Assembly: GCA_021962125.1 (NCBI GenBank)
Contig: JAGDYQ010000001.1
Span: 5,516,061 to 5,580,060 of the forward strand
Length of the DNA: 64,000 nt
Source of the DNA: Bulinus truncatus
Taxonomy: Eukaryota
Direction of reading: 5' to 3'
Shown here: piece by piece, positions 9,065 through 62,240 of the stretch
Position numbering within the stretch: the stretch's first letter is position 1
Layout: each line of letters begins with the position of its first letter
The notes under the pieces: model-generated
The model's input: only the letters and a program-made list of their open reading frames with translations
What the model was told of the DNA's origin: nothing
Database searches by the model: none
Position numbers and translations under genes: made by a program

Positions 9065-9239
9065 TGTGTTTGGTCTGTGTCGGACATTGGCTTTCTAGTA
9101 GTATATGCTTGTCTGTGGTTAGTCTGTGTTAGACATAGGCTCTCTCTCTCTTCCCCCCCCTCTCTCTCTTTCTCGTAGCATGCAGCAGGTGAGTCAGCAA
9201 TACACCACATGATCGACCCAGCGTGGGCAAGATGAACCA

Positions 9240-10644: not shown

Positions 10645-10915
10645 CCGGCCTTCAAGGTTGTTAACGATACTCTAAAATTGTATCGTCAATACCGATACCA
10701 CTACTTCATAAAAATAGTATCGCCAATACCAATACAAATACTCAAGTAAAAATGTATTGCCAAAATCGACACTGATACAATACCAATACTTTTGAGAACA
10801 ACAAAATGTTTTTATTTAAAATATAATGAGTGCAAGTTTCTCAAGTTTTTAGAATACATTGTCAAAGCACAATTTTAATGCTAATCACTTCACAACTTGG
10901 CAGCACGTAAGAAGA
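10645..10915 (-). mobile_element. Dispersed repeat copy 1, the sub-terminal or 3' non-coding region of a hAT-family element. The same 270 bp recurs at 27525-27990, inside the hAT-N element.
   Basis: There is about 90% identity to 27525-27654 plus 27837-27990. It lies directly downstream, on the minus strand, of the hAT dimerisation-domain ORF. Confidence 0.6.
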
Positions 10916-11198
10916 CAATCATTTCAAAATGATCATTGCTTAGCCTAGAACGTATAGGCATAAAAACACGCCCACCCAATGAAACCAGGCGCTCAACTGC
11001 AGCACTAGCCGTAAGTCCAGTGTTAAGTTGCAGGTATAGTTTCTTAATTCTTGGGTAGACTGCTAATGACAGCATTTTTGATGAGTTATCTTCAAGATAT
11101 CTGTCTACTTCAGCAGAACTGTTACTATTAAGCAATTCGTCCTGGTTAAAGTTAGTAGCTATCTGGAACAAACAAAATCGCATCTTTGGCTGCGGCAA
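10890..11198 (-). pseudogene. C-terminal fragment of a hAT transposase (dimerisation / hATC domain): ...LSLAVYPRIKKLYLQLNTGLTASAAVERLVSLGGRVFMPIRSRLSNDHFEMIVFLRAAKL.
   Basis: It matches the hATC consensus (YP.L..LA...L.IPASSA.SERVFS.GGRI...R.RL....VE.LIFL) residue by residue. There is no upstream catalytic region in frame, so the copy is truncated. Confidence 0.65.
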
Positions 11199-12839: not shown

Positions 12840-13520
12840 TGTCAAGATGACGGGGGCAAGATGACGAGCTCGTCATTTTGCGTGTTTTGGAATTTATTAA
12901 ACCAACTAACTATATGTATATATATAGAAGAAATCCTCAAGATGCGAATGGAACAAAGAATCTATGGCCTCTGCTCTCTAAAAATGTTAAAGAAGGACAA
13001 ATGAATAATTTGTTGCATTAGCGCAACTGGCTTTTGCCTGCCACCTTTTCTGATTTTGGCCAGAAAACGAATGCTTACTGAACGTGTAGAAAGAGCCCCA
13101 CAAGGAACTGTAGGCCACTGCAGTGATAACGGCTGGAGCAATGAGGGCTCCTTTTTATCTTTTTTTGAATCACTTTTATCTTCAAGTGAAACTAAGCAGT
13201 CTCCAGCCACTTGTTGTGTCATTTTTCGGCCCATTAAAGAACTTCTATGGCCAAGCATGTGACAACTTTATTATCACTCATCCAGGACAACCTATCACAG
13301 ACAAAAGTATTGGCGAGCTATATAGCACCGCATACTTCAAAGCAGCTACAGTTGGAAATGCCGTTAATGGGTTTAGGGAATGTGGGATAGAGCCTCATAA
13401 TCCCATTGTGTTTAGTAAACATGAATTTTCTGCTGCAAAAACTACCGACCGTGATATTGTTGTTGATGAGACTGAGAATAATAATGCTAATCCTCAGACC
13501 CTGGTATTAGAAAACTAAAT
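12840..13520 (+). pseudogene. Remnant of a pogo/Tigger (DDE_1) transposase C-terminal half. It is split over at least two frames (13056-13262 and 13123-13518), and the third catalytic residue is lost (LQPLVVSFFGPLKNFY where LQPLD is expected).
   Basis: Motifs SDNGWSNEGSFLSFFE (pogo ...SGWM..E.F..W..), LSSLQPLVVSFFGPLKNFYGQ (T.HLQPLD.SVFGPLK.YY) and AYFKAATVGNAVNGFRECGIEPHNPIVFSKHEF (the C-terminal AW..V....I.NCF.K.GI.P.N motif). Frameshifts between the pieces show it is inactive. Confidence 0.6.
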
Positions 13521-13859: not shown

Positions 13860-13985
13860 GTAAGCAGGGGTGGGGTGTCGGCCAAAATATTTGCCGACAC
13901 CGACTCCGGTGTCGGCATTCCATCAACCGCCAACACCGACACCGTTGTCGGTTTTCTAAAATCCACCGACACCGGAGGGGGGGGG
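13860..13985. repeat. Short palindromic repeat of the CCGACACCG family: GGTGTCGG ... GCCGACACCGACTCCGGTGTCGGC ... CCGACACCGGAG followed by a G12 run.
   Basis: Seen directly. It is related to 17405-17560 and, inverted, to 62110-62240. The centre is a perfect 10-bp stem (GCCGACACCG/CGGTGTCGGC) with a 4-nt loop. Confidence 0.45.
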
Positions 13986-14569
13986 GCAAAGGGAGATAAT
14001 TGTGTATTTTTCCCCCTGTATACATCTCATACTATATACATATAAAGATGCACGTCTAATTGTATATTTAATCTTCTTGGCTCTACAACCCAGTTGTACA
14101 TGTAACATTGAAAGGTCACGAAAAATACTAGATATGGACATCAAGAGTAGCTGCAGTGAATACATTGAAGTAACAAAGTGAATGGTTTACTTCAAGATAT
14201 GCCACATTATGCGGGATGTTATTTTTATAGTAAACCTGAAGCGGCCAATTCGCTACTTTTAATAAGTTCTCATTTAATGTGTAGGCTAGGGTGATAACAA
14301 AAAAAAAGTTTTTTATGAAACCACTTGCAATCGAGGAACTTTTATGTGTAATTTAAGAATATGAATTGCATTTTTAATTTTTTTGAAAAAAGTTCCCCCA
14401 CCTCCACATTTTTTGGAAGAAAAAAGTGAAAAAAAATTTTTTTTTTCAAAAAAGGACATGTTTTTTTTTTTAGCTTAATTCAAAAGAGTATTAATAATAA
14501 CTAATCAACTTTTATTAACAAATAAGATATAGAACAGTTAGTAATATGTACAGAATGTACAAGAAATGT

Positions 14570-16400
14570 TCAAAACATATTTTGTCCTATGAACTTCAGA
14601 TTAAAAAATTCAATTTTTCTCGATTTCGCATGAAGTTCCGCCATCAGTTTCACAGCACGTTCAGCAATTTGGTTAGATCTGCGAATGTCAATTAATGACT
14701 TCTCGACTGACCAATGGGTCTTTAAACACTTAATTGCCTTCTTGCATTTTATCTTGATGAGTGAGGTAAACAGTTCATTGAAGGACGCTTCATTGTAGTG
14801 TTGCGAATCGAACCAAGCATTTGCCCATTCGTAGCAGATGAAGTTGCAGGCAGAAGCGAGAATGCTGAGCCACTCTGGTATCAGAAATAATGCTATAACA
14901 GTAAATATTGCACGTGAGTTCCATCTTGCCTGGTGTAAATTTGGTAATTTATTCCAGCTGATGCGAGGCCAACGGGGGTTCTCGCGTGCTAACATCTTCT
15001 GTCGCAAGAAGCGGTAATCAGCTTGAAGAGTGACATAGTTTTGTGTTAATTTGCCAATGAAGGAACAGTTGAGTTCTGGTTTGCTCGTTGGCTCTTGAAT
15101 AAGAAAATTCATGACATGTTTCAGAAGAAGGTCGAGTACATGGTGCTGACAGTCAATATATTGTGGCTTCTGAAAGCCATTGCTCAAGACATCATCTTGT
15201 ATGAGCTTTACAATCCCGTGCAAATGGTCAGTATTTCTGCGGTCGTGTCGCATATGTTCACGCAAATATTTTCTCAAGCATCATATTCATCAATTAGCTG
15301 ATGTAGTTCATTGTGAATGGCCGCGGCAGAACCACTCTCACATTTGAGAATACCGAGTTTGATTTCGGTTTTCATATTTTTCAGCAATCCTACTTGATAC
15401 TCTTCCACTTGCACTCTTTTACCATCAAACTGAAGACAATAGGGATCTTTGCTTTGAAGTTTTTGAACAATTTTGGTTTTCATTTTCCGTCCTTCAGAGA
15501 TTACTCGTTTCCAGACACCCGCCTGATTTGGAACCGCCACATCATGACCCTGTTCAGCAATGTTTGCAAGAACGTCATGTGCTTTATGTGTAGAAATGTT
15601 TTTCAGTACTAGTAAACCCGCCGTTCTAGTGCTTGCTCTTCGGTATTTCGGTTTGCATTCAGAAGATGACGTTTAAGAAATAGTTGGTGACTTGGGTGAA
15701 GAAGCAGATGTTTCAGAATCCAAGATTTTGAGACAGTTGTATGTTTTTGTGTAGGTTTTGAGACAGTTGTATGTGTTTGTGTAGTTTTTGAGACAGTTGT
15801 GTGTGTTTGTGTAGGTTTTGAGACAGTTGTGTTTGTTTGTGTAGGTTGTGAGACAGTTGTATGTGTTTTTGTAGGTTGTGATTGAGAAGAGCTGGATTGA
15901 GATTGAGTCTTTGATAGTCGGATTCGTTTTCTTGGGTGGAATGATTCCAAAGGGGCTTGTTTGACCATTGAATAACCAATCTTTCCTCCACTGTTAACTT
16001 GCCTCTGGTAGAGCTCTTTATCCTCTGTGCTTTTCCATTATCCATTAACGTTGGTGACATCAAATAACTGAGAAAGTGTTATCAGATGGTTTCTTTTTGT
16101 TTTTGTCATATAAATCAATTAGACCATTGAGTTTCGTTCTGATTAGTGTGCTGGATAATAGTGGAAAGTCTGGAATTTCCCTCCAGAGCATTTCTATATC
16201 AGTAATCATATTTTTGATTCGATCCAGTCGCCGTTTGTGGCTATTGAACAGAAAAGTGAAGTTTCCAAGAATTTGACGGTTTGTCGGCATCCATGTGAGA
16301 TTGATTAGCTCTTCAACAGATAGAATTCTTGGATACCTCTTCTGTTTAGAAGATGAGGGTAGATGTCTTGTTTATAAACAAATGGAAACAACTGACTGGA
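14570..16400 (-). pseudogene. Degraded transposase gene inside the hAT element. ORFs sit in three frames at 16400-16060, 16063-15609, 15540-15274 and 15277-14570. The C-terminus is hATC-like (HWSVEKSLIDIRRSNQIAERAVKLMAELHAKSRKIEF).
   Basis: ORFs run consecutively on one strand and are separated only by frameshifts. The C-terminal S..AER motif resembles hAT dimerisation SSAASERVFS, though weakly. A 31-bp tandem expansion sits inside the reading frame. I could not find a convincing catalytic DxWTS motif, so the assignment rests mainly on the element's termini and TSD. Confidence 0.45.
15718..15900. repeat. 31-bp tandem repeat (TTTTGAGACAGTTGTATGTTTTTGTGTAGGT), about 5.5 copies, inside the degraded transposase ORF. 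It encodes TQTHTTVSKP-type peptide repeats.
   Basis: Seen directly. Confidence 0.85.
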
Positions 16401-17404
16401 ATGTGCTTAAAAGCAGTCTAGTAAGTCATGTAAAAATTCAGTGTGAAATTGAAACCGAGCGTCAAACTGCGCGATATGAGAAATCAAAAAGGAAAAGGTG
16501 GGGGAACTTTTTTCGATTAAAAAAAAAATAATGTTGCTACTGTCATCTACATATAATTGTTCCTCGAATGTAAGGGGTTTCAGTTTCGTTACGAAAAAAA
16601 ATGAAAATAGTTATCACCCTAGTGTAGGCTTATGCACAAATATTGGTCAAGATTATTATTAACGATTGCCTACGTCAGCAAGTAACTGCAAAGTACAGAC
16701 ATATCCAACAACACTAGAGCAATGATGCTTGGAAGTTTATAAGTGGCTACTCAGAGAATGCAGAATGCTGAAATAAAATCACGGCAAGGGCTACAGACAA
16801 TGATAAAAGATGGTTGTTCCAGAACTATTTTTTAGAAAAGAGAGAGACGTATGAAGACAATACATACTTAACAGTTAATAGAGGAAGGAATCGTTATTTT
16901 ACACCCGAATTAAACCTGAAATATGTATTGAGAAAGTTTGTATTGTAATAGGTGGTGGGGGGCTCCAGCTACGGACTGAACTTTAATGTAGTGTCATTGT
17001 GACATAGATTGGTAATGTTTCATTCTGGCTGAGATAAATTAAGCTGTGGAGAGTGTGATCATTCTTTGAAGTTCTAAAAGACTTGAATAGGTTTGTGTGT
17101 AATCTTTCTCCAACATGGATATTGATAGAGATGCAAACTAAAAATTTCGCATGATTTACAATGATTGAGTGAATAACAGAGTGAACATATCCAGTAGCCT
17201 TCCTATCTGCTTTCAGTCATAATTCTGTTATTGTTGACAAGTTGTTGTAATGTAGAGAATCTCGCTTTGAAAAATAATACAATCGTTGATAAACAGATTT
17301 ACCAAGTTTTTATTTAAAAAGAAAAGAATAATTTAAGAAAGCTTTAAATTAAAGATTGGCTAAGAACTATCTGACGTTGTTCTGGATTATTTAATAAAAG
17401 TTCT

Positions 17405-17570
17405 AGTATTTTTATTTGGGGGGGGGGGGGAGTTTTCGCGCCGACACCGAACCGACTCCGGACAAAGTACAAATGCCGACACCGACTCCGGACAAAATAC
17501 AAATACCGACACCGACACCGGACAAAATACAAATACCGACACCGACACCGGCAAAAACTACGGACACCGG
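17405..17570. repeat. G13 run followed by about 30-bp repeats containing CCGACACCGAC(T/A)CCGGACAAAATACAAAT, 4 copies. It has an inverted counterpart at 62110-62240 and belongs to the same family as 13860-13985.
   Basis: Seen directly. The overlapping ORFs 17344-17687 are translations of this repeat. Confidence 0.7.
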
Positions 17571-17574
17571 CTCC

Positions 17575-17700
17575 CCAGCCCTGGTTGTAAGCTGTCCTGC
17601 TTGTGAAGAGGAATATTGTGACCCTCCAACAGAAGAATGGATCCAGTGCTGTAAATGCCCAGAGTGGTGACATGAGGACTGTTCCAATTATGAAAATGGC
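17575..17700 (+). other. Short Cys/His-rich coding-like fragment: SCPACEEEYCDPPTEEWIQCCKCPEW(TGA)HEDCSNYENGIFICDNY. It sits in the left-arm-specific 530-bp block (17575-18110).
   Basis: The C-x2-C ... W-I-Q-C-x-K-C ... H-x2-C ... C spacing is reminiscent of zf-CW or PHD-like fingers. It is interrupted by an in-frame TGA and has no upstream non-repeat ORF, so it is most likely a relic. Confidence 0.25.
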
Positions 17701-18109
17701 ATTTTTATTTGTGACAATTATTAGCTGCTCAACTTAATTCTTTAACATTATGTTACAATGCATTACGCTTAGTTTTATACTTTGTAAGATGTAAAAATAC
17801 ATTTATCATTTGTTAAATCATGTAAAATATTAAAAATAAAATGTGTTCAACTTTATCTTAATGTTGTCATCTTGCCTCAAGACCAAAGTCATCTTAACCC
17901 GGGTACTGGGCAAGATGAAAATTAGGTATGGTTTGGGAAAACTAAAATTATACTGTATTAATTTTATTTGAAAAATTAAATTGCAATATAATTAATACCA
18001 CAAATGGTTAATCTAAAAGTTCATGTAAAATTAATTTTACTATCCTTAAAAATAAAATCAATAAACACCATAAATTGTTAACATAGCCATCTTGCCCCGG
18101 TCTCCCATA

Positions 18110-18302
18110 CTGTCTGGCCCTTCCTGCTAACACATATGTCTATGTATGTACTCTCTGGCCATAAACAGCTCCCTGCTAACAAACATGTCTATATATGTAC
18201 TCTCTGGCCATAAACAGCTCCCTGCTAACAAATATGTCTATATATGTACTCTCTGGCCATAAACAGCTCCCTGCTAACAAATATGTCTATATATGTACTG
18301 TC
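18110..18302. repeat. 49-bp tandem repeat (CTGGCCATAAACAGCTCCCTGCTAACAAATATGTCTATATATGTACTCT), split by the 3.1-kb insertion, continuing at 21389-21600 and mirrored at 61640-62060.
   Basis: Seen directly. Confidence 0.85.
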
Positions 18303-21300
18303 CAATGTTCCCTCTAAGGATATGGGGTTTGTGCGCCAAAAAAAAATATTTGTGAGCCAAAATTTTATTGATGTGTAAATTGTGCGCCAATTGCACGACG
18401 CGCACTATAAATACAATTACTGTAATTTAAAAAGAAATAAATAATAAGATAATAGAGTCAACCACATGACTCCATATATTTAAATGTAGGAATTTTTTTA
18501 TAAAGCTTTTGTAAATAAATTCTTTTCGAATTAAAAAAAAAATAGGGTTGCAGTAAATATGGTTAAGTAGAAGAAATAACATTTAAAAATGACGAATATG
18601 CAAACCAAAAAAAAAATAGAAATAAATTGATAATTTTTTTAGATATAAATATAAATGGAAGTTTACTTGGGATAGACCAACACTAAACTAAATTCTAATA
18701 CAACAAAATAAAAAAGAAAACCCAAGAATTGGAGTCAATTAATTTTATTTGGTAATAATTAACTTTTCCCTTCTTCCTTTTTCTGCTTTCCAAAAGTCAT
18801 ATACAGGCCCGTAGCCAGAAATATTGGACTGGGGGGCCGAAGACATTTTCGGGGAGGCGAAGACATTTTTTTCGGGGGGGGGGGTGCCGAAGAAATGATC
18901 ATGGGGCACAGGGGCGGATCTAGACAACTTTGACGGGGGGGACATTGACCCCGGGGGGGGGCAAAACTGTTTTCATTGTTGAAAATTGGTCTTAGAACAA
19001 AACATATTTCGATAATTTAATGATGTATTACCTAAAATTCCAATAACGGGGGGGGGGGCATGCCGCCCCGGCCCCTCCCCCTAAATCCGCCACTGGTGAG
19101 GGGGGGGCGAAAATGGAGGCGCGAAGCGCCGAAAGCTTGCAAACGGAGAGCATGTGTTTGGGGAAGGGATCTCAGTGAGTCCCCTCCCCAAGAAATTTTT
19201 TGCAGTTCCATATCTGGAATGGTGCATTTTAGTACCGATTGTTTAGCTATCAATTAGAAATATATAATTTTTAACTACGTTTCAATAATGCATGACATGT
19301 TGCAGTTTTGTTAAAAATAATTTAAATGGTAAAGAGTTTTAATGATAAAAATTTTTTGAGGCTGAGCAATTTCTGATTCCTGTTATAAATATATTGACCA
19401 TTTGTTCTGCTACACAATTTTTACATAATAGATATCTGATTTATATTATTATACTGTTTGTTTAATGTACAACCCGGGAAGAACGACAAAGATGCACGAA
19501 TATAGCTTAGCTATTTGTGTGATATTTCTTATAAAATATTGAAAACAAAGAACAAATCTATCAACAACAACAGTCGCAATTATTCAATTTAAATTAAAAT
19601 TAATTCTGCTAAAAAGTAAATTTGCAAATTAAATAACATCACTCAGAAATCACGGAGTTTGTACTTTATTATTTTATTATACATATGTATAAAAATGAAG
19701 TCAGAAGTCAATGTTATTTTATTCACTTATTTAAGTTGCTAGTTGTCCTCAGAAGATATCAATATATAGAATTATTACAAGGTTGTGAACAGGCCCATCG
19801 ACAGAAATTTCGGGCCCCCGTGCTGATATTAATATGTTAAAAAGTTGATTGGCCAGCTCAGTCCGGGTCCCTAAAACTCGCCGGGCCCCTGGGCATTGGC
19901 CCCACTCGTCGGCACTGGTTGCGAACTTATATTATAATACGTTTCAAATTTGCAAACGTCGTGGTTTAGCACTGAATTTACCTAAAAATGCTTCAGCATT
20001 CAGATTGTCTGTTAAATATTTTTTTCAAATGCAAGCAGGAAAAGATTGCTTAGACGCTTTTGTAACATTGATCTGCGATATGGGGTGAGCATTCGTGTGA
20101 GGGTTGAGAAACTGTTCTCACACACGGCTGTTGAAGCCCCAAAATGCCAATGCTGCCCAAAATACCCATAAGTGAACTTCAATAAGATTCAATCTTTTAT
20201 GCCCAAAATTTAGATAAGCTATATATGTAAGTAAAATAGCCTGAATGATTGCCAAAATATAAACTTTTAAGTTTTTATTATTATTGATTTATTTAACAAA
20301 ATGATTGATGTTTTATAGCCGTTATTATTAAAATTTTGTCAAAAAAGCTCAAATCATGCACGGGGGGGCCTCAGGTCATGAACGGGGGGGCTCAACCCCC
20401 CACCCCTAGCCCCCCCCCCCCTGTGACTACGGGCCTGGTCATAAACATGATCTGACATTTTCAGCTAATAAATAAACAACCAAACGTACTAGTTGCGAAC
20501 ACGACTATTTATTTACAGAATGTTCATAATAATATAACAAGTCCATACATGAATACACTTTTAAAGTCCACAATAATTCATTCAGCCTCAACTCTGACTA
20601 ACAAAAGATCACTTAACTATTCTCGTCACTATCGTACCTCTCCCGTTACTAAAACTCCTAACTAAAACTCTCGTTACTATATATCTCTCGTAACATTATC
20701 TCCTCACTAAGAACTCTTAACTAACTAATGTTCGAATCCAGTCGTATTTATACTCCTAACGTCCGTGCCCTAATTACCCTAAATACGTCACAGTCTCTTC
20801 AGTATTGTCCTAACTATCTAATCTTTCTAGGAGCGTCACCTGGTCGTCATTGTTAACCTTACTAGCCTGTCCGACATCGCCTCCCAGTATTCACACCTTT
20901 GCTGTCTACTGTTCTATTGTTTCACCAACCTTGTCCTAAGTCGTCTACCATTATTTGTATTAATCCTACGTCTTAGATGTCTTTTTATCTTAAAACCTCG
21001 AAGGGGATTGTCTCTGTCTCTACAATTACCCTAGCTCGTCACAATATCACCAAATGACTCGAATCCTGTTCGTCGCCCTTTCGCTTCGACGTTTTCTTTT
21101 TTACTCCAACTATATTATATTTAACGAAGTGTACTATTTACAGTCAGCTTCAAGCCAATTACTTAAATTACGAACGGGATGGGAAGTTGATATCACAACA
21201 AAGACTGTATGCTATTTCGATCCCGTTAAGTTCATTTATATAGCGCAAGTCACGGCGGAATTTTATAACAAAATTTTATGAATTTTTTTTACTCTAATCA

Positions 21301-21388
21301 CACGTTTTGTGCGCCAAGCTAAAAAGATGTGCGCTGAGGTCTGAAAAATCGTGCGCTAGCGCAGGCTGGCGCAGATTAGAGGGAACAG
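18303..21388. mobile_element. Non-autonomous DNA transposon of about 3.09 kb. TIR CAATGTTCCCTCTAAGG ... TTAGAGGGAACA. It is inserted into the 49-bp tandem repeat of the left arm only, with an approximately 8-bp TSD (GTACTGTC / GTACTACT, diverged). The interior has no ORF over 80 aa and contains G- and C-homopolymer-rich blocks plus a roughly 500-bp G-depleted block (20560-21100).
   Basis: TIRs are seen directly and are shared with the 193-bp MITE at 24215-24407. The right arm carries the uninterrupted 49-bp array, which argues for insertion after the duplication. Confidence 0.65.
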
Positions 21389-23576
21389 TACTACTGCCTG
21401 GCCATAAACAGCTCGCTGCTAACAAATATATCTATATTTGTACTGTCTGGCCCACCCTGCTAACAAATATGTCTATATATGTACTGTCTGGCCATAAACA
21501 GCTCCCTGCTAACAAATATGTCTATATACGTACTCTCTGGCCATAAACAGCTCCCTGCTAACAAACATGTCTATATATGTACTGTCTGGCCCTCCCTGAT
21601 AACAAATAAAATACGTTAAGAAGAATTAAACACAACACTCTATGATCATTTCTATAGAAATATTTTAATCAATATTTCCCCCATTATAACCCGTTCTTAT
21701 TCGAATAGATTTCATTATTTTCATAGCCATGAAAAACTTTAATTTTTTTAAATGGTTCTTTCTGTCCTGTTTATTTTTACTGCACGCATTTGACTGTTTT
21801 GCCATCTCTACCAAAGCTTCTGCAAACTTGATGTAATTTCCACAAACTGGGGCTTTCTGATTGGGGCCGTATCATGCTATTTGAGCATGTGACATTGTTG
21901 ACCCCCTGTAAAGTAAATAAGCAGAAATTTACAACATAGACGATATAATGTGTTGCTAACCTAGTTGAATTCAGCATATGCATTTAACTAACATTTATAA
22001 TTAATTGGCATGTATTGATTTCTGATTTTATTTTTATTGTATTGTCAGTTCAATTGACCATTGTCCAAAGAAAAATACCACAAACAGCTACTATTTAAAC
22101 ACTAATACTAAGGGGAACCAGTGTTACCACTAAAACAATGAAAAAGCCAAGTTAGGACCATTAAAGAATCCAATAAAACCCAAGGAAGTTTTAAACCTTT
22201 TTTAATAATAGAAAAATATTTCATAAAACATAATGTAGTTCAATCGTATGTTTTTTTAACCCAAAAAGAGATTCTCCTAGCCCCTGAGTACAATACTCCC
22301 CCGTTTTTCCAGACAATAAATCAACGGGTCAGTACTGTTCAGTTCTCCCCCTTTTCCTCACCATAAATGGTCCAAGTGAGGAGAGGGGGGCACTTTTAAA
22401 ATACAGAAAAACAATACAAGCAAAAAAAAAAATTCAAGATTTTTAGCTTATATCTCCATTTCTCAAATCAGTGTTCGAAAACCCAAGATTCTGGGGAAAA
22501 AACAACTAGGTAAACCACTTTTTACAGCGAAAAGGAAAACCTTAATTAGCGACATTTTTTTTTATCTCCATTTTAAGGAGGATGAATAAAATTCGAGACT
22601 TCATCATTAGGGTGGGTAAAAAAAATTTTTTTGGAGTTGGGAATTTGAAACACATTCAAAAAGTTGCCCATGATCCTACTGATTGTAAAAATGTAAAATT
22701 TGTAAAAATCAGATAATGTCTTCCACTCCCAACTTTAAATGGGGTACGGGGAAAAAATGCACTATGTCTAAAAAAAAAACATTTTTTTTTTAATTTTTAG
22801 ATACTAGAATATGTCAATAATAACAATGAATTAACTATATTGCAGAAAAAAATATTTAGATCAATTACAATGTATTTTCAGAATGTTAATCATTCAGAAA
22901 CTTCAATAATTTAAAAACTTAAAAGTCATTTTTCTCTGAAAAAATATTTTTGACAATGTGCTTTACTGTAGCAAGGAAATCTCAAAAACTTCATGTCAGA
23001 TTTTGATAAAACTTCTAATTTATATTTAGCAGAGGTGCATTTATATAATGTCAGAGGCTTTTCAAGAAATTTTAAGTCCTTTTTTTTTTTTTGGCAATTT
23101 TTTTAATTTTCAGATTAGCATTTTTTTCTTATTTTCACAATAAAAAAATGTTAAATTCATTAAAAAAATATTTATTACATTATCAAAAAAAGTACTCTGA
23201 CATTCCCTAAAGTAAGCTTTCCTAATTATAAAAATGTACATTTTGTTTGAATCAGTCTATAAATATTTCAGAAATATTTGCCACAAAAAGGTCATAAATT
23301 TCAAGATGGCGGCATGCCACACCCACAAATATCAATGTTTTAATATTTTTTTTTGCACAAAATTATTTTTAAATATACTATATCATTACTAAGATATTAA
23401 AATGACTTAAACTTTAATAAAAAAAGATTTTGCTTTGACCCGGGTACCCCCCCCCCCAATGTAAGATATTTTACAACATTTAGAATGTTTGGTATAAGTA
23501 ATATAAAATTGTAAAATCTATAGATCGTTCATGCAAAATATACAATGTACATAAGAATAATACTGTTTACGGATTG

Positions 23577-25275
23577 TCACAGGAAACTTGCTTTGCTTTC
23601 AACTTTCGGAAGAATATCCCTTGATTTCTTTGTTTGCAAAACCATCCCATGTCGAGAGCTATGCCCGTACACTTTCAAACTAAAAGCAGTAACTTCTTTA
23701 ATTGCTCTTTCACCAGCTTGAGAGTGACAGGGAATTTGATCCAGTATGATTGGGTTGTTGCGTTTAAGTTCATCATCACAAATATGTTTCAGCAGATGAG
23801 GGGATGTCACTGCACAAAGATCCCAGTTAATCATCTGATCATATGATTTAGCTGCAATATTCAGGATTATGTCATTTTTGTTGAAAATTCTAACTCTGCT
23901 CGGAGTTGGTTTATGTTGTGCTGTTATGATTTTATTTACTGCATACCTTCCAATTTCTTCATCATTGTCCTAACTGCAGCCAATAGAATGTTTTCTGGAT
24001 GTGCAAAGTAGCAGTTATTTTCCAGTACAAGCAATATAATAGATTGATCAGCAGTATCAAGGTTCTGAAGCAGTTGTATCATATATAAAAAAGTTTCTAG
24101 CCCCACTTTGACAAGATGGATCGCAAAAATCCTGTTCGCTTTTGTTAACCATCTTTGCTCTCATCAGTATGTTCCTTCGCTGCCCTATCTCTCCAAATTT
24201 TTCTATGTCGACGCCAATGTTCCCTCTAAGGTGTGGTATGAAGTGAGCAAGAAATTTTGTCTCTGAGCGACATTTTTGTTTGAGGCCAAAATTTGTGAGC
24301 GATATAAGCGATGTAGTCCGTCGGAGTGAGCGATCGTAGTGTAGTATGAGCGACGTTCTGAATACGCGTGAGCGATCGCTCACGCGCTCAGCTTAGAGGG
24401 AACATTGGTCGACGCATCTTTGCCGGATCCAGAGTTATAGATGGTGTTAACATGTTTAAGTCCTTCAACACAGCATTAACGATAAGACATGTATCCCCAT
24501 TGCTAAGTTTACATCGATCCACTGCTTTGCATAATACTTCATATTGATATATGTTTTGTTCTTTGGAACATTCCTCATCGCTGGAGAAGTCTGCATCAAG
24601 CAGTTCATCATCTTCAGCATCCTGATCTGGAATATCATTATCTTTCTCATCATTGACGTTATCATTTGTGGTTCCTATCTGTCGATTTTGTAATATTTTT
24701 GTTGTTTGCTTGTCAACATTGTCTATGAACATATTTCTTGCCGTCTTTTGATCCACCTAAAATGCCCACTCAAGCACAGGAATTTTTACTGTTTGTGGAC
24801 ATTTACAGTCTCATCATATGTCAAATAAATTTTTGAAGGAATTGTACCCCTCTTGAAAAGTAACCAATGATCGCTTTATATTTCTCAAGTTCATGACCTT
24901 TGGCTTTAAGTCTTTTTACTCGAACAATTATACTGGTAATGTCATTTGTAGGGATACTAGCCTGGTCATATAATTGTTTAACTTCATGCGCTAATGCGTG
25001 CGCTCGTGAATGAAGGCTATGATTGTATTGTTCCATTTTAAGCATCCACATATAGCCTTGAAAATATCTTCACTGGTTGGAAGTTGTCGTTTAGGTAATT
25101 CAGCTGCTGACCCAAACACAGAATGTACAGTTGCACTTCTTGTAGAAGAACTCATATTCATAGAAGAACTTAATAAAATAATTGAAAAATTAATCAAAAA
25201 TGAAATAAAACAACCATGCGTGATCCAATAATGAATACATGATACACCAGTTATATTGAGAGAAAATGGATGCAA
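23577..25275 (-). pseudogene. Transposase remnant of the hAT element. Its pieces are 24991-25275, 24821-25051 and 24388-24756, which is interrupted by the MITE at 24215-24407. A further piece at 23940-24056 ends at a GT donor (GAAG|gtatgcag), continues after the AG acceptor at about 23860 (attgcag|CTAAATC), and runs into 23577-23834, whose C-terminus is hATC (INWDLCAVTSPHLLKHICDDELKRNNPIILDQIPCHSQAGERAIKEV).
   Basis: The hATC motif match is W...yP.L...a...L.IPxxSxxxER. The acidic linker (DIPDQDAEDDELLDADFSSDEE) is typical of hAT transposases. Frames switch between the pieces. The apparent intron could instead be an indel. Confidence 0.45.
24215..24407. mobile_element. MITE (193 bp) with a perfect 16-bp TIR CAATGTTCCCTCTAAG and an 8-bp TSD GTCGACGC (24207-24214 and 24408-24415). 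The interior has GAGCGA(T/C) repeats. It is nested inside the hAT transposase remnant.
   Basis: Seen directly. It has the same TIR as the 3.1-kb element at 18303-21388. Confidence 0.75.
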
Positions 25276-25649
25276 TGCTTATCCCAGTTATCTGAACTAA
25301 TTAGTTATTCATAAAAAAGGTTATAAAGATAAAACACAAATTTTATATGCATACTATTTCTTTTTTGAATAACCTAGGTCACAAATTCAACATGTTCGGT
25401 CACAAATGAGTCACAAAAATTATGGTTAAAATTTCGAACAAAAGTTGGGAGTAGTAAAACTATGTAGTTTTCAAATACTTGTACCTATTCTATGTACTAC
25501 CATGATATAACAACTTTTTAATAATGTTTCATTAAAATTTTTTTTTTACCCACACTACTCATCATTTTCCAGCCACTGGAATTTTTGTTTTTACATCTGA
25601 AATTGGGTGACTATTAAAATACGTTTTTGTAATTGGGTCCATCTTGTTA

Positions 25650-26045
25650 TTCAGCTGGACATAAACCTGGGCAAACTGTTGATGATATGTTAGAGCGTGA
25701 TGTCTGTCAATGTTGTCATAGAGCTTGGCAAACCGTTAGTTGATGTTATGTAAGCGTTTGATGTCTGTCAATGTTGACATACAACTGGTCAAACTTTTGA
25801 TGATATGTTAGAGCGTGATGTCTGTCAATGTTGACATACAACTGGTCAAACTTTTGATGATATGTGAGAGTGTGATGCCTGTCAATGTTGACATACAGCT
25901 GTACAAACTGTTGATGATATGTGAGAGTGTGATGTCTGTCAATGTTGTCATAGAGCCTGGCAAACCGTTAGTTGATGTTATGTAAGCGTTTGATGTCTGT
26001 CAATGTCGACATACAACTGGGCACACTGTTTGTTGATATGTGAGA
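25650..26045 (-). repeat. Short inverted array of about 7 monomers of the main 58-61-bp satellite in reverse-complement orientation. It abuts the left IR arm and mirrors the array/right-arm junction at 59866.
   Basis: The reverse complement of 25650-25700 matches 59830-59866 (catatcatcaacagtttgcccaactga). The monomers match the boundary variants found at 31600-31700. Confidence 0.85.
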
Positions 26046-26047
26046 AT

Positions 26048-26240
26048 GTGATGTGCACGCTCATCTCGCCACTTACAAAAAAGCAGAACAAAGAATGCCT
26101 CACCTCTCTCGCCACTTACAAAAAAGCAGAACAAAGAATGCCTCACCTCTCTCGCCACTTACAAAAAAGCAGAACAAAGAATGCCTCACCTCTCTCGCCA
26201 CTTACAAAAACGCAGAACAAAGAATGCCTCACCCTCTCTT
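26048..26240. repeat. 38-bp tandem repeat (CTCTCGCCACTTACAAAAAAGCAGAACAAAGAATGCCTCACC), 5 copies.
   Basis: Seen directly. ORFs 26003-26329 are its translations. Confidence 0.85.
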
Positions 26241-27202
26241 GCTGCTTCAAAAAATCTCTTCCTCCCCTCCCCCACAGGTCAATAACTATTAAGTTTTTTA
26301 ATCAATGGATGAGTACTGATCAAATATGAATTCAGTAAGTTCAAACATTCAAATCACTTTGACTCTACTCTGACTTTAAAAACAATCAATGCGAGTGGTG
26401 TTCCTAATCGTCACTTACATTATGTACCTCTCTCGGTGATGTTTCATTTTGAATCATGTAGTGTTGACAAGTTGCTTCTAATCTAACAATGGAAGTCATG
26501 GTTGCTTTTTTTTTGTGGGTCCTTGAACTATTTTGTGATTTCTCTGATAAGCGGACAAGCGTTGATATTGATGTAATATTTAGAGGGCATTGATTTGTTT
26601 TGTCCAATCTATGACTATTGATGAAATGAATTTATCGTCTTTTATTTGAAAATAAATGAAATTAGTAAATAAAAATATCACAATATTTTTTCTTTCAATA
26701 TTGTTGTTGTATAAAAAGGTGAATAAAATTTGAGGCAATTTTTTTTTAAATCCATCAAGAGATAGATATTAATGGATAGATACTTAAAATTTTGATTTTC
26801 CTCCAGTACAAAAAATCCATCTAATTGTATTATACTTACAAGAGTCACACAAACAGTCGTTTAATATGACCAAACCTACGTTGAATAATAATGGTTTAGT
26901 AAGAGATAAATAGATGCAGGTATGATTAGTTGGCACATGATTTCAGAATACAGCTACTTTTTTTTTAAAAAAAAGTGGTGTCAATTAAACTAGGGATCAA
27001 TATTCACTACTCAGTTACTTAAGAATAATAGCTTACTTACTAGCAGTAAGACTTCAAATTACATAAAACAAATTCATACTTAAGTCAATAAATTCATTAA
27101 TACTTTTGATTCAGTAGTCTAGACTTATGGTCTAGACAAGCATATAGGAGATATGGATGGACTACTTCCTTTGATGCGAGATAAAAAATATCCAACTAAT
27201 AG

Positions 27203-28318
27203 TAGTGTTGTTTTCGTCGACTAAAACTAAAACCTTCGTTAACGAAAATGTTGACTTTTCGTCAACGAGAACTAAAACTAAAACTAAAATTAGCAGCAAG
27301 ACTAAAACTAGAAGAAAACTAAATCTGGTTGACAAAAGACTGTATAAAAACTGAAACTAAAACTCCCCAACGAAATAAAAACTAAAATCCCCATTTATCG
27401 TTCTTTTCCGGTACTGCGGTCTGCGGGCGAACCATCTATTCTACGAAATTATTATGACCTAGGACATTTCTAATTTCTTTGATGATCGCGCATGCGCATC
27501 AACTGGGCGATAATATAAGCAGGGCTGTTAACAATACTCTAAAATTGTATCGTCAATACTGATACCAATACTTCATGAAAATAGTATCGCAAATACTTAA
27601 GTAAAAATGTATTGCCAAAATCGATACCGATACAATACCAATACCTTTGAGATTACAGTGGCGCAACTGGGGGGGGGGCATTGGGGGCATTTGCCCCCTC
27701 CGAAATAAAAAAAAATTAAAAGATTAGACCAAAATTTGTGTAAAATAAAATACAAATATATAAATAATGTGATTTTTAATACAAGTGATTTTTTTTTGAC
27801 CCAACCTCCCGAAAGTTTGATCTAGTTGCGCCTCTGTTTGAGAACAACAAAATGTTTTTATTTAAAATATAATGAGTGCAGGTTTCTCTAGTTTAAAAAA
27901 AAATGTAAAAACAATAGAATACATTGTCAAAGCACAATTTTAATGCTAATCACTTCACCACTTGGCAGCACGTAAGAAGAACATCACATGACACAATGTG
28001 ATAGTGTGACTTATAATGTGACAATGGAATGAATGGACTCAGTCTCAGTACACTGAGCTGTCATCTCTGTGACTACTATTATTATGCTTCAAACTGTTTC
28101 AACAATTGGTCATGAACAATGATGTTATTTGTTATTGGTGTTTACAAGACTAAAATGAATAAGACGAAAACTAAAACTCTGATATTTTTAGTTTTAGTCG
28201 ACGAAAACTAAAACGAAGTCTAAAATTGGGCCTAAAACTAGACTAAAACTAAAATCATTATAGAAAAAACAAAATAAAAACTGAAACTAAAATAGGACCT
28301 GGGACTAAAACAACACTA
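27203..28318. mobile_element. Non-autonomous hAT element (1116 bp). Termini TAGTGTTGTTTTCGTCGACTAAAAC ... GTTTTAGTCGACGAAAAC ... CAACACTA with ACTAAAACT sub-terminal repeats. 8-bp TSD ACTAATAG at 27195-27202 and 28319-28326. The interior carries the dispersed repeat shared with 10645-10915.
   Basis: A perfect 8-bp TSD and matching TIRs are seen directly. The TAGTG terminus fits the hAT consensus. Confidence 0.7.
27653..27836. mobile_element. Small MITE (184 bp) nested in the hAT-N element. TIR CAGTGGCGCAACTGG / CTAGTTGCGCCTCTG (13 of 15 bp match), internal G10 run, flanked by a 7-8-bp TSD (C/G)TTTGAGA.
   Basis: The uninterrupted version of the target (tacttttgagaacaacaaa) is present in the paralogous copy at about 10790, which shows this is an insertion with target duplication. 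Confidence 0.6.
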
Positions 28319-28329
28319 ACTAATAGGAT

Positions 28330-28850
28330 TTAATGGTAGACAAGGTTACAGACGACAGAAGGGCAGGTGGGAAAACAATAGACAACGTAAAACGGCAAAG
28401 CTGGAACGACTCAAGAAATAGACCGCGGACGACATTGGACAGTCCAGAATTATACAATAACAACTAGGTGACACTTGGAGAGAAAAGCATAGAAAGGACA
28501 ATTTGGAAGCATTTTGATGTAATAGTGGTAGTTAAGGCTCTGATATTAGTAGTATAAATACGGCTGGTTATTGACAGAAAGGAAGTTGAGAAAAATAGGT
28601 AAGGATATTTAAGGATAACGAAAGAGCGAGTAACAGTTGAGAATAGGACAGTAGATCAGAGCTCTCGAGTGTCGTGGACATGGCGATATGGTCCACTAGA
28701 TAATATAGTATTAGCTGAGAGACAGTCGACGTTTTTAGTAGGTACATAATATAGTTGACAATTAGAAACACTACTCGCAGTGATTTGTTGTTTAGTCAGA
28801 GTGTTTGGACATTTTGAATTATTATGTACATTAATGTAAAAAAAATAGTT
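28330..28850. repeat. C-depleted (GA/T-rich) block, a diverged inverted copy of the G-depleted block 20560-21100 that lies inside the 3.1-kb TIR element.
   Basis: The reverse complement of 20540-20600 matches 28775-28830 (ttgtttagtcagagtgtttgg vs tttgttagtcagagttgagg). Overall similarity is roughly 70% with inverted strand composition. Confidence 0.45.
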
Positions 28851-30169
28851 CTGTTAACAACGCATCTGAGTTGTATCCAAGTAATAGTCAACAAAAGCGA
28901 AACAGGCAGGCAGTCACATAGCTGGCATTCACATGTAAATAAATCGAACGAGTAACAACAACAATAGATCAATATGGACCATAACTTTCCCTTTTGAAAG
29001 CCATTCCTTTTCTATTATTTAATTCATTTAAGGAATGTAATACTAAGTTATGTTTCTTCTTTTTTATTCTTTTTATGTGTCCAAACCATCTTAGGCTCAT
29101 TGTAAATATCATATAATTCTCAAATTTAATTCTCCAATTAATGAAATAAACTGATGATGTCTAGAATATTAATTATGCTTATATTTTGTACTCGTTTATA
29201 TAAATGATCTTCGTTGGAATTATTTTCAGCCATTACCATTCTAAACAAGGACAATACAATTTAGATACCATGATATCAAACTATACTAATTGGCCCCGGA
29301 TTTGTAACGATAGAATGACATTTGAAATTTCACAACCAATGTGGAACAATCCATAACTTACGTAACGCTCTTTCTCTTGATTTTTGCCTCGCTCTTCCTT
29401 CCTTCCCTTGTCCATTTTATCATACCCTGTCACACCTCAACACCCCCACCCCCTCAAATAAGACATTACGCAAAAAGTGAAAAGACTGAATAGGTCTTCA
29501 ATAGATGTTTTATTTTATCCAAGGTGGCGTCCAGATTATAGATGTAGGCCTATATTTTTACTTTCAGACATGTGTTTTTGTATTTTTCTGTTGCATAGAA
29601 TGTATCCCTGGTTTTCAATGAATGACTTTAAAATACGTAGTTACATTTCCTGTTTATTTGCCTTTTTATTTTTCGAGTCTGGAGGTGGGGGCTTACAGGG
29701 AGTGGGCGTGGATTAATATAACCAATGAGCTGCAAGGTATATTTTCCTGTAATTTATAGACTAAACCCTACAAGGCACGTAATTCACAATTTAGTTGCTA
29801 AGTGTTGAGGCATGGAGAGAGTCAGAAGACTAAAATTGTGTAGAAAAGTGATGAGCCGACTAAAGGTATACGATGTATATCGTAAAGCGAAGAAACGTGG
29901 ATTCTGCTTGACTAATAAGGTGAATTATTTTTTCAACAATGAAATTTACTACCGAAATCTTTTTTACATTTGTGCATTCGAACACCTTTCAAAGACTAAA
30001 TAGCAAGTAAATATTTGATGATTTATTTCTTTAAGCATTTTTTGTACTGTACGACAAATTTGGTAACTTAAATAAACATCTCCTTTAATCCATTGATAAC
30101 ATAAATCATCAGACATTGTTTGCTATTAACAATAATTTAGGCCATGTAAATAAAATATATTCGAATCGT

Positions 30170-30995
30170 GCACACAAAACGCTTGCACTAAACGCACACA
30201 CGGAGTTAAACAAGCAATTAAGCCTGTTCCATTCTGGACAAAGGACGTGTTGGCGCATTTTCGTGTTATGTATCAGTACGTTTGTTAGCTTTCAGTAAAT
30301 ATTTGTAAATTTTGGAAATGTTTATAAATTCAATTGTGTAATGCATATATTTGTAAAAAATATAAAGACGTTTCTTTATATTTGAAAAAAATTGTTGTCT
30401 CTTAAATCTAACTACAAGTGGTTTGTGGTTACTGAAATAGGACTCATAATTGAAAACATTCTAAATTATAGTCATTTAATCGTCCGAAAACTCCGTCAAT
30501 TGTTGCATAGCTCTGATACTTTCAATTAAACTCAAAACACAAGCTTACTATTTCATTTGATGAGTTTCTTAATAAATCTTGGTGAAACTACGTGCTGCAG
30601 TATTTCGCACCAAATGAACGGGTTATTGAACGTACAAGGTGTATATATAATATATAAGCCCCTTAGGAGCCCTGAAGCCCGGCCCTCAGAGGTCCTATCG
30701 CAAAATGAACTTTTGATGTACACATGGCAGGCCAAGACCTACAAAATGATATATACATCATGGGTCTAGGACTTATAGTTGCTGAGATATAGCGCTCCTT
30801 TATTAATATAGCTTATATAGTAAAAAACGGTACTAAGGCACCTTTTACGGCCCTGAGAGGTCAGATCGCGAAATGGAAAAAAAACACCTTTCTTGGCAGG
30901 CCCAGACCTACAAAATGATATATACATCATGGGTCTAGGACTTATGGTCGTTGAGATCTAGGGTGATGACAGACGGACGGACAGACAAAACGGGA
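30170..30995 (+). mobile_element. SINE-like dispersed repeat ending in a (GACA/GACG)n tail (...GATGACAGACGGACGGACAGACAAAACGGG). Part of it is duplicated in tandem (30640-30780 and 30840-30990). A second, shorter copy lies in minus orientation at 60225-60660, inserted into the right IR arm.
   Basis: Homology of 30170-30300 plus 30780-30995 to the reverse complement of 60225-60660. The left arm lacks this segment between caataaatcaacgggtcag and ttcagttctccc. Confidence 0.5.
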
Positions 30996-31587
30996 ACAAT
31001 CTAAAAATATTTAATAAAACGCTTCTATTATTGTACTCGCAGAATGGCACATTCTCTGACATGACCACATAGTTTCAGGTGTCGCGGCCTGGGTCGTAAC
31101 AAGGTATTCGGGTGCCCTAGTAAGATACTTCCAGCGATTTTTGGGGCTCTAGGCTAAGCTATCTGTCCGTGCTCCCATATAAAAAGATTATAGGAATAAA
31201 TAATTGAAGTGACGCCTTTTGAGTTTGGGCCCTAGACAACTATCCTAGTTTCACTATCCATTAGAACAAATATAATAACACAAAAACTCATAATACAGAC
31301 ATTAACAGTTGATTTTAATCATAATAATTGAATGTAATAAATAATTAAGCAGAAAGAATTTCAAGAAAAATGTTTTATAAGGTTATAAATAGAATGAAAT
31401 CGAATCGTTATTGAATACCAGATTTCATTATGAGCCATTATCTCAAATCAAAGACCGGAAGTACCGGTTTTGTATTCTTTAATATTTGAAGACAGTTCCC
31501 GGATTGTCAAGTTTGTATTTAGATCTGACGACAGAGCGAGCGCCTTATCAAAAAACAAACAATAGATTAGGAATCTGAAACATTCCC

Positions 31588-34500
31588 AAGATTGACAGAC
31601 ATCACTTTGTCATATATGTCAAAAATGTGTCTCGCTGTATGTCAACATTGACAGACATCAAACGCTTACATAACATCAACTAACGGTTTGCCAAGCTGTA
31701 TGTCAACATTGACAGACATCACACTCTCACATAACATCTACTAATAATTTACCCAGTTGTATGTCAACATTGACAAACATCACACTCTCACACAACATCT
31801 ACTAATAGTTTGCCCAGTTGTATGTCAACATTGACAGACATCACACTCTCACATATCAACAAACAGTTTGCCCAGTTGTATGTCAACATTGACAGACATC
31901 ACACTCTCACATAACATCTACTAATAATTTACCCAGTTGTATGTCAACATTGACAAACATCACACTCTCACACAACATCTACTAACAGTTTGACCAGTTG
32001 TATGTCAACATTGACGGACATCACACTCTCACATATCAACAAACAGTTTGCCCAGTTGTATGTCAAAATTGACAGACATCACACCCTCACACAACATCTA
32101 CTAATAGTTTACCCAGTTGTATGTCAACATTGACAGACATCACACTCTCACATAACATCTACTAGTAATTTACCCAGTTATAAGTCAACATTGACAAACA
32201 TCACACTCTCACACATCTACTAATAGTTTACCCAGTTGTATGTCAACATTGACAGACATCACACTCTCACATAACATCTACTAATAATTTACCCAGTTGT
32301 ATGTCAACATTGACAAACATCACACTCTCACACAACATCTACTAATTGTTTACCCAGTTGTATGTCAACATTGTCAAACATCACACTCTCACGTAACATC
32401 TACTAGTAATTTACCCAGTTATAAGTCAACATTGTCAAACATCACACTCTCACACAACATCTACTAATAGTTTACCCAGTTATAAGTCAACATTGTCAAA
32501 CATCACACTCTCACACAACATCTACCAATAGTTTACCCAGTTGTATGTCAACATTGTCAAACATCACACTCTCACACAACATCTACTAGTAATTTACCCA
32601 GTTATAAGTCAACATTGTCAAACATCACACTCTCACACAACATCTACTAGTAATTTACCCAGTTATAAGTCAACATTGTCAAACATCACACTCTCACACA
32701 ACATCTACTAATAGTTTACCCAGTTGTATGTCAATATTGACAAACATCACACTCTCACACAACATCTACTAATAGTTTACCCAGTTGTATGTCAACATTG
32801 ACAGACATTACATTCTCACATATCAACAAACAGTTTGTCCAGTTGTATGTCAACATTGACAAACATCACACTCTCACACAACATCTACTAATAATTTACC
32901 CAGTTGTATGTCAACATTGTCAAACATCACACTCTCACACAACATCTACTAATAATTTACCCAGTTGTATGTCAACATTGACAGACATCACACTCTCACA
33001 AATCTACTAATAGTTTACCCAGTTGTATGTCAACATTGACAAACATCACACTCTCACACAACATTTACTAATAATTAACCCAGTTGTATGTCAACATTGA
33101 CAGACATCACACTCTCACATATCAACTACTACTAATAATTTACCCAGTTGTATGTCAACATTGACAGACATCACACTCTCACACAACATCTACTAATAAT
33201 TTACCCAGTTGTATGTCAACATTGACAAACCTCACACTCTCACACAACATCTACTAATAGTTTGCCCAGTTGTATGTCAACATTGATAGACATCACACTC
33301 TCACATATCAACAAACAGTTTGCCCAGTTGTATGTCAACATTGACAAACATCACACTCTCACATATCAACAAACAGTTTGCCCAGTTGTATGTCAACATT
33401 GACAGACATCACACTCTCACATATCAACAAACAGTTTGCCCAGTTGTATGTCAACATCGACAGACATCACACTCTCACATATCAACAAACAGTTTGCCCA
33501 GTTGTATGTCAACATTGACAGACATCACACTCTCACATATCAACAAACAGTTCGCCCAGTTGTATGTCAACATTGACAGACATCTCACTCTCACACAACA
33601 TCTACTAATAGTTTACCCAGTTGTATGTCAACATTGACAGACATCACACTCTCACATATCAACAAACAGTTTGCCCAGTTGTATGTCAACATTGACAGAC
33701 ATCACACTTTCACATATCAACAAACAGCCCAGTTGTATGTCAACATTGACAGTTATCACACTCTCACATAACATCTACTAATAATTTACCCAGTTGTATG
33801 TCAACATTGACAAACATCACACTCTCACACAACATCTACTAATAGTTTACCCAGTTGTATGTCAACATTGTCAAACATCACACTCTCACATAACATCTAC
33901 TAGTAATTTACCCAGTTATAAGTCAACATTGTCAAACATCACACTCTCACACAACATCTACTAATAGTTTACCCAGTTGTATGTCAATATTGTCAAACAT
34001 CACACTCTCACACATCTACTAATAGTTTACCCACTTGTATGTCAACATTGACAAACATCACACTCTCACACATCTACTAATAATTTACCCAGTTGTATGT
34101 CAACATTGACAAACATCACACTTGCACACAACATCTACTAATAGTTTACCCAGTTGTATGTCAACATTGACAAACATCACATTCTCACACAACATCTACT
34201 AATAGTTTACCCAGTTGTATGTCAACATTGACAAACATCACACTCTCACACAACATCTACTAATAGTTTACCCAGTTGTATGTCAACATTGACAGACATC
34301 ACACTCTCACATATCAACAAACAGTTTGCCCAGTTGTATGTCAACATTGACAGACATCACACTCTCACACATCTACTAATAGTTTACCCAGTTGTATGTA
34401 AACATTGACAGACATCACACTCTCACACAACATCTACTAATAATTTACCCAGTTGTATGTCAACATTGACAGACATCATACTCTCACACAACATCTACTA

Positions 34501-62060: not shown

Positions 62061-62109
62061 GAAATATTAAGTGGTTTACCATCGTGCTAGACCAAAGGCT
62101 TATTCTTAT

Positions 62110-62240
62110 TGTCAGAGCTGTGGAGCCGGCGTTGGTGTCGGTGGTGTCAGTAGTTTTTGCCGGTGTCGGTGTCGGCGTTTGTACTTTGCCCGATGTCGGT
62201 GTCGGTATTTGTACTTCTTCCGGAGTCGGTTCGGTATCGA
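62110..62240. repeat. Inverted copy of the CCGACACCG-family repeats (GGTGTCGGTGTCGG...).
   Basis: Reverse complement of 17440-17560. Confidence 0.7.

Follow-up and report, generated by a model that had tools for sequence, protein, structure and literature searches.

Paired inverted segments and growing satellite arrays have each been described in several genomes, and both occur together at a locus of Bulinus truncatus that lies on contig JAGDYQ010000001.1 of assembly GCA_021962125.1 (positions 5,516,061 to 5,580,060, forward strand); this whole stretch of 64,000 nucleotides is called the window here, and coordinates are counted from its first letter. The locus consists of two arrays of one satellite in opposite orientation, each joined to one arm of a long inverted repeat. 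Human Y and X palindromes and inverted segmental duplications likewise consist of a pair of inverted arms that flank a unique spacer and end sharply at common points, and the arms of the human Y and X palindromes are kept >99.9% identical by gene conversion. Layered expansion of arrays is known from alpha satellite. Literature on the decay of satellite arrays at their ends has been summarized (PMC5139131). In Drosophila virilis, the foldback transposon Tetris, with its TIR-220 satellite (PMC4079207), ends in long inverted termini, each with a unique domain on the outside and a domain of tandem repeats on the inside; the middle is non-coding, the two termini differ in repeat number, and the repeats have grown into satellite arrays of kilobase size. 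Tetris also has target-site duplications (TSDs) of 8–10 bp, several genomic copies, termini of up to 1.7 kb, and tips shared with a miniature inverted-repeat transposable element. For Rehavkus, a 9-bp TSD and a minisatellite preceding the 3′ terminal inverted repeat (TIR) are described (PMC6446971), and the Tribolium satellites TfSat25/TCsat12 and TfSat06 are associated with it (PMC12581902). The same work describes centromeric macro-dyads in Tribolium freemani, whereby sub-arrays of one satellite, comparable in size, recurrent and abutting, are oppositely oriented.

Compared with the human palindromes, the present locus has the inverted arms, the spacer and the sharp ends, whereas its arms are 90.5% identical, with a single 285-bp block at 97.9%. 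The likeness to Tetris extends to all the traits of architecture named above; unlike in Tetris, no TSD was found, the arms reach ~3 kb and have diverged by 10%, and monomers measure 57–61 bp. As with the Rehavkus-associated satellites, short arrays (2–12 repeats in Tribolium) within inverted termini stand beside a long array of the same repeat (up to 80 kb there), but in Tribolium the contrast is between species and many transposon copies are involved, whereas here it lies between the two arms of one locus, whose membership in such a family is putative. The macro-dyads differ in that the two arrays here are of unequal size (0.4 versus 28 kb), are held apart by a 5.5-kb spacer, and are bounded by unique inverted arms. 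From array-end decay and layered expansion nothing essential differs, as old diverged edges, a young homogenized interior and higher-order blocks are all present; the addition is an unexpanded paralogous copy that appears to preserve the ancestral state.

Oppositely oriented arrays joined to inverted arms

The arrays were delimited by cutting monomers at a conserved core (CAACATTGACAGACATCA). One partial and six further monomers form an array on the minus strand at 25658–26055 (the mini-array), and 474 monomers form an array on the plus strand at 31587–59863 (the main array), 289 of them 61 bp, 158 of them 58 bp and 17 of them 54 bp in length. Tandem Repeats Finder reported a 57-bp repeat (×6.8) at 25658–26054 and a 61-bp repeat (×471.7) at 31636–59850. 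The two arrays are oppositely oriented and face each other across a spacer of 5,531 bp (26056–31586), and the head-to-head arrangement around ~5.5 kb that a preliminary description had reported was borne out. The same holds for its observation that one junction sequence occurs, inverted, at both outer array edges: the arrays are joined through it to the left (14091–25657) and right (59864–63318) arms, and the blastn match across it (right, 59502–59958; left, 26023–25558) has an E value of 5e-133. The whole inverted-repeat structure spans 49 kb (14091–63318). The satellite monomer holds a conserved 30-bp box containing a short palindrome (TGTCAACATTGACA), the hairpin potential of which is modest (−5.2 kcal/mol; z = −0.4 for the monomer). 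Its sequence was not found in the literature, and the translated satellite open reading frame (ORF) had no homologs in the protein collection; a match to the monomer core in L003 was dismissed as a chance match without repeat structure.

For comparison of the arms, the right flank was searched by blastn against the window's left part. Starting from the junction match, an inverted chain was obtained (right/left: 59949–60223/22608–22339, 60685–61096/22277–21875, 61376–61854/21879–21392, 62125–62735/17552–16967, 62812–63157/16953–16609 and 63136–63318/14287–14091). Identity was 90.5% over 2,113 aligned bp (Kimura two-parameter distance 0.10), and homology ended sharply at the same nucleotide in both arms (14091 and 63318), after ...GTACAACTG(G/A)G, with no match beyond. 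The left arm is 11.6 kb long because of three private insertions, and two further private pieces lie in the right arm, at 60224–60684 (a dispersed repeat found twice more at 30680–31009) and at 61097–61375. Two of these five insertions have clear 8-bp TSDs, and empty sites were found in both directions. Where the left arm has 49-bp repeat blocks on either side of its 3.1-kb insertion (18123–18299 and 21416–21608), both match a single right-arm block (61647–62056). The private insertions and their empty sites indicate that the arms derive from one ancestral sequence of ~3 kb and have evolved separately since; the arms diverged after the duplication. The locus has two of the features that characterize an inverted segmental duplication, namely two collinear inverted copies with common end points and an independent history after duplication. 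No third copy of the arm was found by blastn within the window, and no Pfam domain was found in the ORFs of the arms or in a six-frame scan of the right arm.

The left-arm insertion at 14287–16621 was also found elsewhere. Copies with 76–93% nucleotide identity (77–88% for the long matches) sit in four ENA contigs (L001, L002, L004 and L005) that are otherwise unlike the window, several of the matches beginning at position 14287, and the presence of copies in unrelated contigs confirms that this insertion is mobile. The transposon contains an ORF of 235 amino acids (14570–15277, minus strand) with no Pfam domain; among named proteins its closest relative, at 66% identity, comes from a frog and carries the annotation phosphatidylcholine transfer protein isoform. 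Three of the four metagenome contigs have a GC content of 28–30% and one of 40%, which hints at a widely or horizontally spread family.

Two rare monomer types link the mini-array with the edges of the main array. Of type A (61 bp, AAACGCTTACATAACATCAACTAACGGTTTGCCAAGC) the window has three copies: two belong to the mini-array, and the third is the main array's first full monomer, where the variant sequence lies at 31660–31696 within monomer 31643–31703. Of type B (57 bp, CACATATCATCAACAGTTTG) there are five copies; four belong to the mini-array, and the fifth closes the main array (59816–59863), where it is fused to the arm. Read in the same orientation, the order is X′-A-B-B-B-A-B-junction-arm for the mini-array and X-A-[~471 monomers]-B-junction-arm for the main array. 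By nearest-neighbor identities, the mini-array A monomers are 93–97% identical to main-array monomer 2, against a median of 75–79%, and monomer 474 is the best match for all four mini-array B monomers, with a small margin over the 58-bp type for two of them. Orthology of the degenerate monomer X (31587–31642) with X′ was not demonstrable, their identity of 71% being no better than that of X to other monomers.

A neighbor-joining tree of 84 distinct main-array monomers and six mini-array monomers gave the same grouping. Monomer 2 formed a clade with mini-array monomers 1 and 5, the two of the "AAACGC" (A) type (bootstrap 100/100), and monomer 474 formed a clade with mini-array monomers 2, 3, 4 and 6 (bootstrap 80/100). 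The preliminary description had expected mini-array monomers to group with the left edge of the main array if a single inversion had taken place; two of the six did so, whereas the other four matched the opposite, outer edge, a feature that it had missed. Its claim that a boundary variant is common to the mini-array and the start of the main array was upheld for one main-array monomer, type A, but not for several. Judged from the monomer sequences, the mini-array resembles both edges of the main array and not the left edge alone. Both major interior classes seem related to the old monomers: the 61-bp class has its length and an AACATC.ACTAA..GTTT segment in common with A, and the 58-bp class lies near B and X′. 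Mini-array monomers 1 and 5 have derived changes in common (..CTCTATGA) and monomers 3 and 4 are near-duplicates, suggesting that a few local duplications occurred in the mini-array too.

Repeated blocks within the main array were found by exact-run analysis in monomer space; a megablast self-comparison of the array gave no matches. Exact repeated runs of at least 12 monomers covered 297 of the 474 monomers, the longest runs comprising 39, 37 and 34 monomers, and shifts of 18, 42 and 156 monomers recurred (1.07, 2.5 and 9.33 kb). Singleton monomers were concentrated at the edges (18 in the first 30 and 5 in the last 24, versus 0–2 per 30 in the core). The main array shows the familiar pattern of an amplified, homogenized core of recent date with older edge monomers; it seems to be that same small proto-array, expanded from within by ~470 young monomers. 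A long head-to-tail array, repeated multi-monomer blocks and diverged edge monomers, as seen in satellites with higher-order structure, are all present. In composition the main array shows strong strand asymmetry (GC skew about −0.5) and has an observed-to-expected CpG ratio of 0.03, compared with 0.69 in the surrounding DNA, which has a GC content of 35.5%; the latter two values point to an invertebrate.

Three observations on the arms stand apart. A block of 285 bp (61376–61660/21595–21879) is 97.9% identical between the arms, the remainder being 87–92% identical; it adjoins a 280-bp piece private to the right arm as well as the 49-bp minisatellite, and either gene conversion from arm to arm or sequence constraint could explain it. 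Repeats of the CCGACACCGACACCGG type, 30–36 bp long, occur in both arms (17446–17556 and 62156–62237) and also ~120 bp outside the left arm boundary (13894–13974), which suggests a separate small dispersed element. A palindrome, TACAAC-CCA-GTTGTA (14084–14098), straddles the outer boundary of the left arm with no counterpart at the right boundary, and may be due to chance or may be a trace of breakpoint formation.

Origin of the two arrays

Since there are two copies, mutually inverted, of the junction and of ~3 kb of flank, an inverted duplication is required, and we regard an inverted duplication followed by one-sided amplification as highly probable. The starting point would have been ~3 kb of non-coding DNA with a short proto-array of 57–61-bp repeats at one end, holding at least one A-type and one B-type monomer. 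Its duplication in inverted orientation would, going by the anatomy of the locus, have made a long inverted repeat with two arrays at the inner ends. The copies then diverged by ~10% (~0.10 substitutions per site), each gaining its own transposon insertions. In the right copy, unequal exchange and block duplication may have amplified monomers of 61 and 58 bp in the space bounded by the old A and B units; this ~70-fold amplification would account for the observed 28-kb array, with its higher-order blocks and with old variants stranded at its two edges. The left copy would have undergone a few local duplications and remained at seven units, and transposons would later have filled the space between the arrays. 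Whether the duplication was carried by a transposon is a separate matter, on which we lean slightly to the view that it was not, i.e. that it was chromosomal. Chromosomal inverted duplication with one-sided amplification is the best explanation overall, and we hold it with moderate confidence.

If so, the locus is a natural before-and-after pair, in which two paralogous proto-arrays lie 5.5 kb apart, one frozen at seven units and the other expanded ~70-fold. Such a pair tells which monomers are ancestral, where growth took place (between the old edge monomers) and in what block sizes (1.07, 2.5 and 9.3 kb). Its usefulness is as an illustration and for annotation of the region; it is an ordinary example of satellite growth, and it does not challenge current ideas on satellite evolution, as comparable cases, transposon-borne ones included, have already been described. 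No sign of a function was seen, and the structure most likely arose as a functionless by-product of repeat turnover.

Several observations weigh against the chromosomal account. The innermost monomers, X and X′, are without demonstrable orthology, and no trace of a symmetric palindrome center was found in the spacer. The arm tips are monomer-like and inverted relative to the array of their own arm, and so resemble a TIR. A foldback-like element with tandem-repeat arms is present in the same window (8298–9056). The count of arm copies covers this window, which leaves room for a mobile origin.

Most of these points bear on the rival that fares best, in which a non-autonomous foldback-type DNA transposon of the Tetris or Rehavkus kind makes up 14091–63318 as a whole or each arm-plus-array unit; a unique domain would lie on the outside of its long inverted termini and tandem repeats on the inside, and in one terminus these repeats would have become a satellite array. 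We consider this possible, if rather unlikely. The architecture is that of Tetris (PMC4079207), with an outer flank domain, mutually inverted tandem repeats and a non-coding middle, and the unequal arrays fit repeats borne by Rehavkus, which in Tribolium number 2–12 copies in one species and extend to 80 kb in a second (PMC12581902). Long inverted termini were found here in the form of the collinear, 90.5% identical arms, with mutually inverted tandem repeats at their inner ends, inside the unique outer domain, and the outer ends are sharp and common to both arms. The small foldback-like element is a further point in favor, as is the monomer-like 27-mer that lies, inverted, exactly at each outer tip. 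The left tip (14085–14113) reads ACCCAGTTGTACATGTAACATTGAAAG, compared with ACCCAGTTGT--ATGTCAACATTGACAG in the monomer, and no other sequence outside the arrays in this window matches the monomer as well (score 35; next best 29); the right tip ranks fourth among independent loci (score 28). Although the left-tip match is weak when taken alone (nhmmer E = 0.2), it is noteworthy because it coincides exactly with the boundary, and a reading of the tips as monomer relics is suggestive.

Against these resemblances stands the missing TSD. No duplication of 8–10 bp was found at any sensible boundary when the whole structure and each arm-plus-array unit were scanned within ~15 bp of their ends, and for want of this defining feature the structure was not filed as a foldback transposon. 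No third copy was found in the window, and no copy of the arm or the satellite in the protein collection or, with an arm 24-mer, in the JGI metagenomes. No transposase remnant was seen, the right arm having no Pfam domain in six frames and the spacer no long ORF, although non-autonomous copies would lack one anyway. The arrays extend 33–46 bp past the innermost TIR-like motif, and the arms, at ~3 kb and 10% divergence, are longer and more diverged than the termini of Tetris. The fuller version of this rival, in which the 49-kb structure is a foldback transposon whose terminal tandem repeat has just turned satellite (7 versus 474 repeats) and whose monomer is derived from the TIR, is more doubtful still. 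A yet more speculative extension of it is that read-through transcripts of the inverted arrays would form hairpin RNA that could enter small-RNA silencing of the satellite.

The remaining explanations fare far worse than chromosomal duplication. A single inversion with a breakpoint within one ancestral array, or an array that was split and partly inverted, was the reading of the preliminary description. The opposite orientation of the arrays and the rare edge variants that they have in common agree with it, and the common ancestry that it implied for the two arrays stands, given the edge clades and arm homology over >2 kb. The inversion itself fails because inversions move junctions without copying them: each junction should occur once, whereas the junction and ~3 kb of flank occur twice, ~10% diverged, and the mini-array matches both edges of the main array. 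We regard this reading as very improbable. An assembly artefact, such as a fold-back chimeric read or a mis-join, might be suspected, as long satellite arrays are hard to assemble and the exact blocks of the main array could be partly assembly-dependent; chimeric fold-backs yield near-identical arms, however, and here ~10% divergence separates the arms and five private insertions, two with clean TSDs, set them apart, which makes an artefact slightly less probable again. Least credible of all is independent seeding, for instance by inserted excised satellite DNA unrelated to the main-array edges, the outcome that the preliminary description had set against its own reading; nothing specific speaks for it, and it is contradicted by the edge-specific clades of mini-array monomers (bootstrap 100 and 80), the same junction and flanks homologous over >2 kb.

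Spacer and neighboring sequence

The coordinates of the features are collected in the table. As to the content of the spacer, the preliminary description had listed a hAT-type element, a short interspersed nuclear element (SINE)-like element and a 38-bp minisatellite. The first is a hAT-like non-autonomous element with a TIR and a TSD; part of the element (27520–27986) is 83–85% identical to 10653–10921, a region overlapping an ORF with a weak hAT dimerization match (10890–11198). The minisatellite is present with a unit of 43 bp rather than 38 bp. At the position of the SINE-like element there is indeed a dispersed repeat, but its assignment to the SINE class was unsupported, as tRNA and Rfam scans of the repeat and of the spacer gave no match. 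No long ORF was found in the spacer, the longest stop-free stretch (90 amino acids) lying within the minisatellite.

Features of the inverted-repeat locus, in window coordinates
Feature	Position	Strand	Remarks
Left-arm outer tip, monomer-like 27-mer	14085–14113	+	Inverted relative to own array; suggestive only
Left inverted-repeat arm	14091–25657	−	Ancestral sequence (~3.1 kb) with three private insertions; inverted and collinear with 59864–63318 by blastn
Private transposon, left arm	14287–16621		TIR TAGGGTGATAAC; perfect 8-bp TSD GTGTAGGC; empty site in right arm at ~63145
Private 3.1-kb insertion, left arm	18303–21391		Splits 49-bp minisatellite
Private transposon, left arm	22608–25557		TIR TAGGGTGGGTAAAAAAAA; 8-bp TSD CTCATCAT with one indel; empty site in right arm at ~59958
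Mini-array	25658–26055	−	In main-array orientation X′ (partial, 58-bp type), A, B, B, B, A, B, junction
Spacer	26056–31586		5,531 bp; non-coding; not symmetric
43-bp minisatellite, ×4.4	26064–26254	+	Adjoins mini-array; Tandem Repeats Finder
2.4-kb unit with 63-bp inverted ends	26367–26429/28740–28802		Sole internal inverted match in spacer
Non-autonomous hAT-like element	27203–28318		TIR TAGTGTTGTTTT; 8-bp TSD ACTAATAG; inside 2.4-kb unit
Two adjacent dispersed-repeat copies	30680–31009	−	Third copy is the right-arm private insertion, also 60260–60481
Main array	31587–59863	+	X (degenerate), A, ~471 monomers of 61- and 58-bp types, B at junction
A-type monomer, inner edge of main array	31643–31703	+	Sole A in main array; 93–97% identity to mini-array A monomers; bootstrap 100
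B-type monomer, outer edge of main array	59816–59863	+	Sole B in main array; joined to arm; best match for 4/4 mini-array B monomers; bootstrap 80
Right inverted-repeat arm	59864–63318	+	Private insertions 60224–60684 and 61097–61375
Right-arm outer tip, monomer-like	63293–63320	−	Homolog of 14085–14113; score 28

Remnants of other transposons lie outside the left arm. A pogo-type DDE-1 transposase remnant (13123–13518), with 61–72% identity to Trichonephila clavipes proteins, is situated just outside the arm, and the hAT dimerization domain remnant mentioned above gave a Pfam E value of 3e-4, just under the cut-off. The spider and frog matches of the transposon proteins say nothing useful on the source organism.

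The foldback-like element at 8298–9056 is made up of ~9 copies of a 16-bp repeat, CGGACAAAACCCCCAG (8298–8439), and ~7 inverted copies (8949–9056), with an AT-rich center of 509 bp between these arms. It sits in a 49-bp tandem array that has the same orientation on both sides (7989–8292 and ~9060–9140). The element is flanked on both sides by CTGTGTTTGG, a possible TSD that is, however, also part of the 49-mer. The region is unusually rich in tandem repeats, and four further unrelated tandem arrays were found at 1–1398 (57/109/161 bp), 3740–4089 (37 bp), 7030–7582 (55 bp) and 9272–10252 (28 bp).

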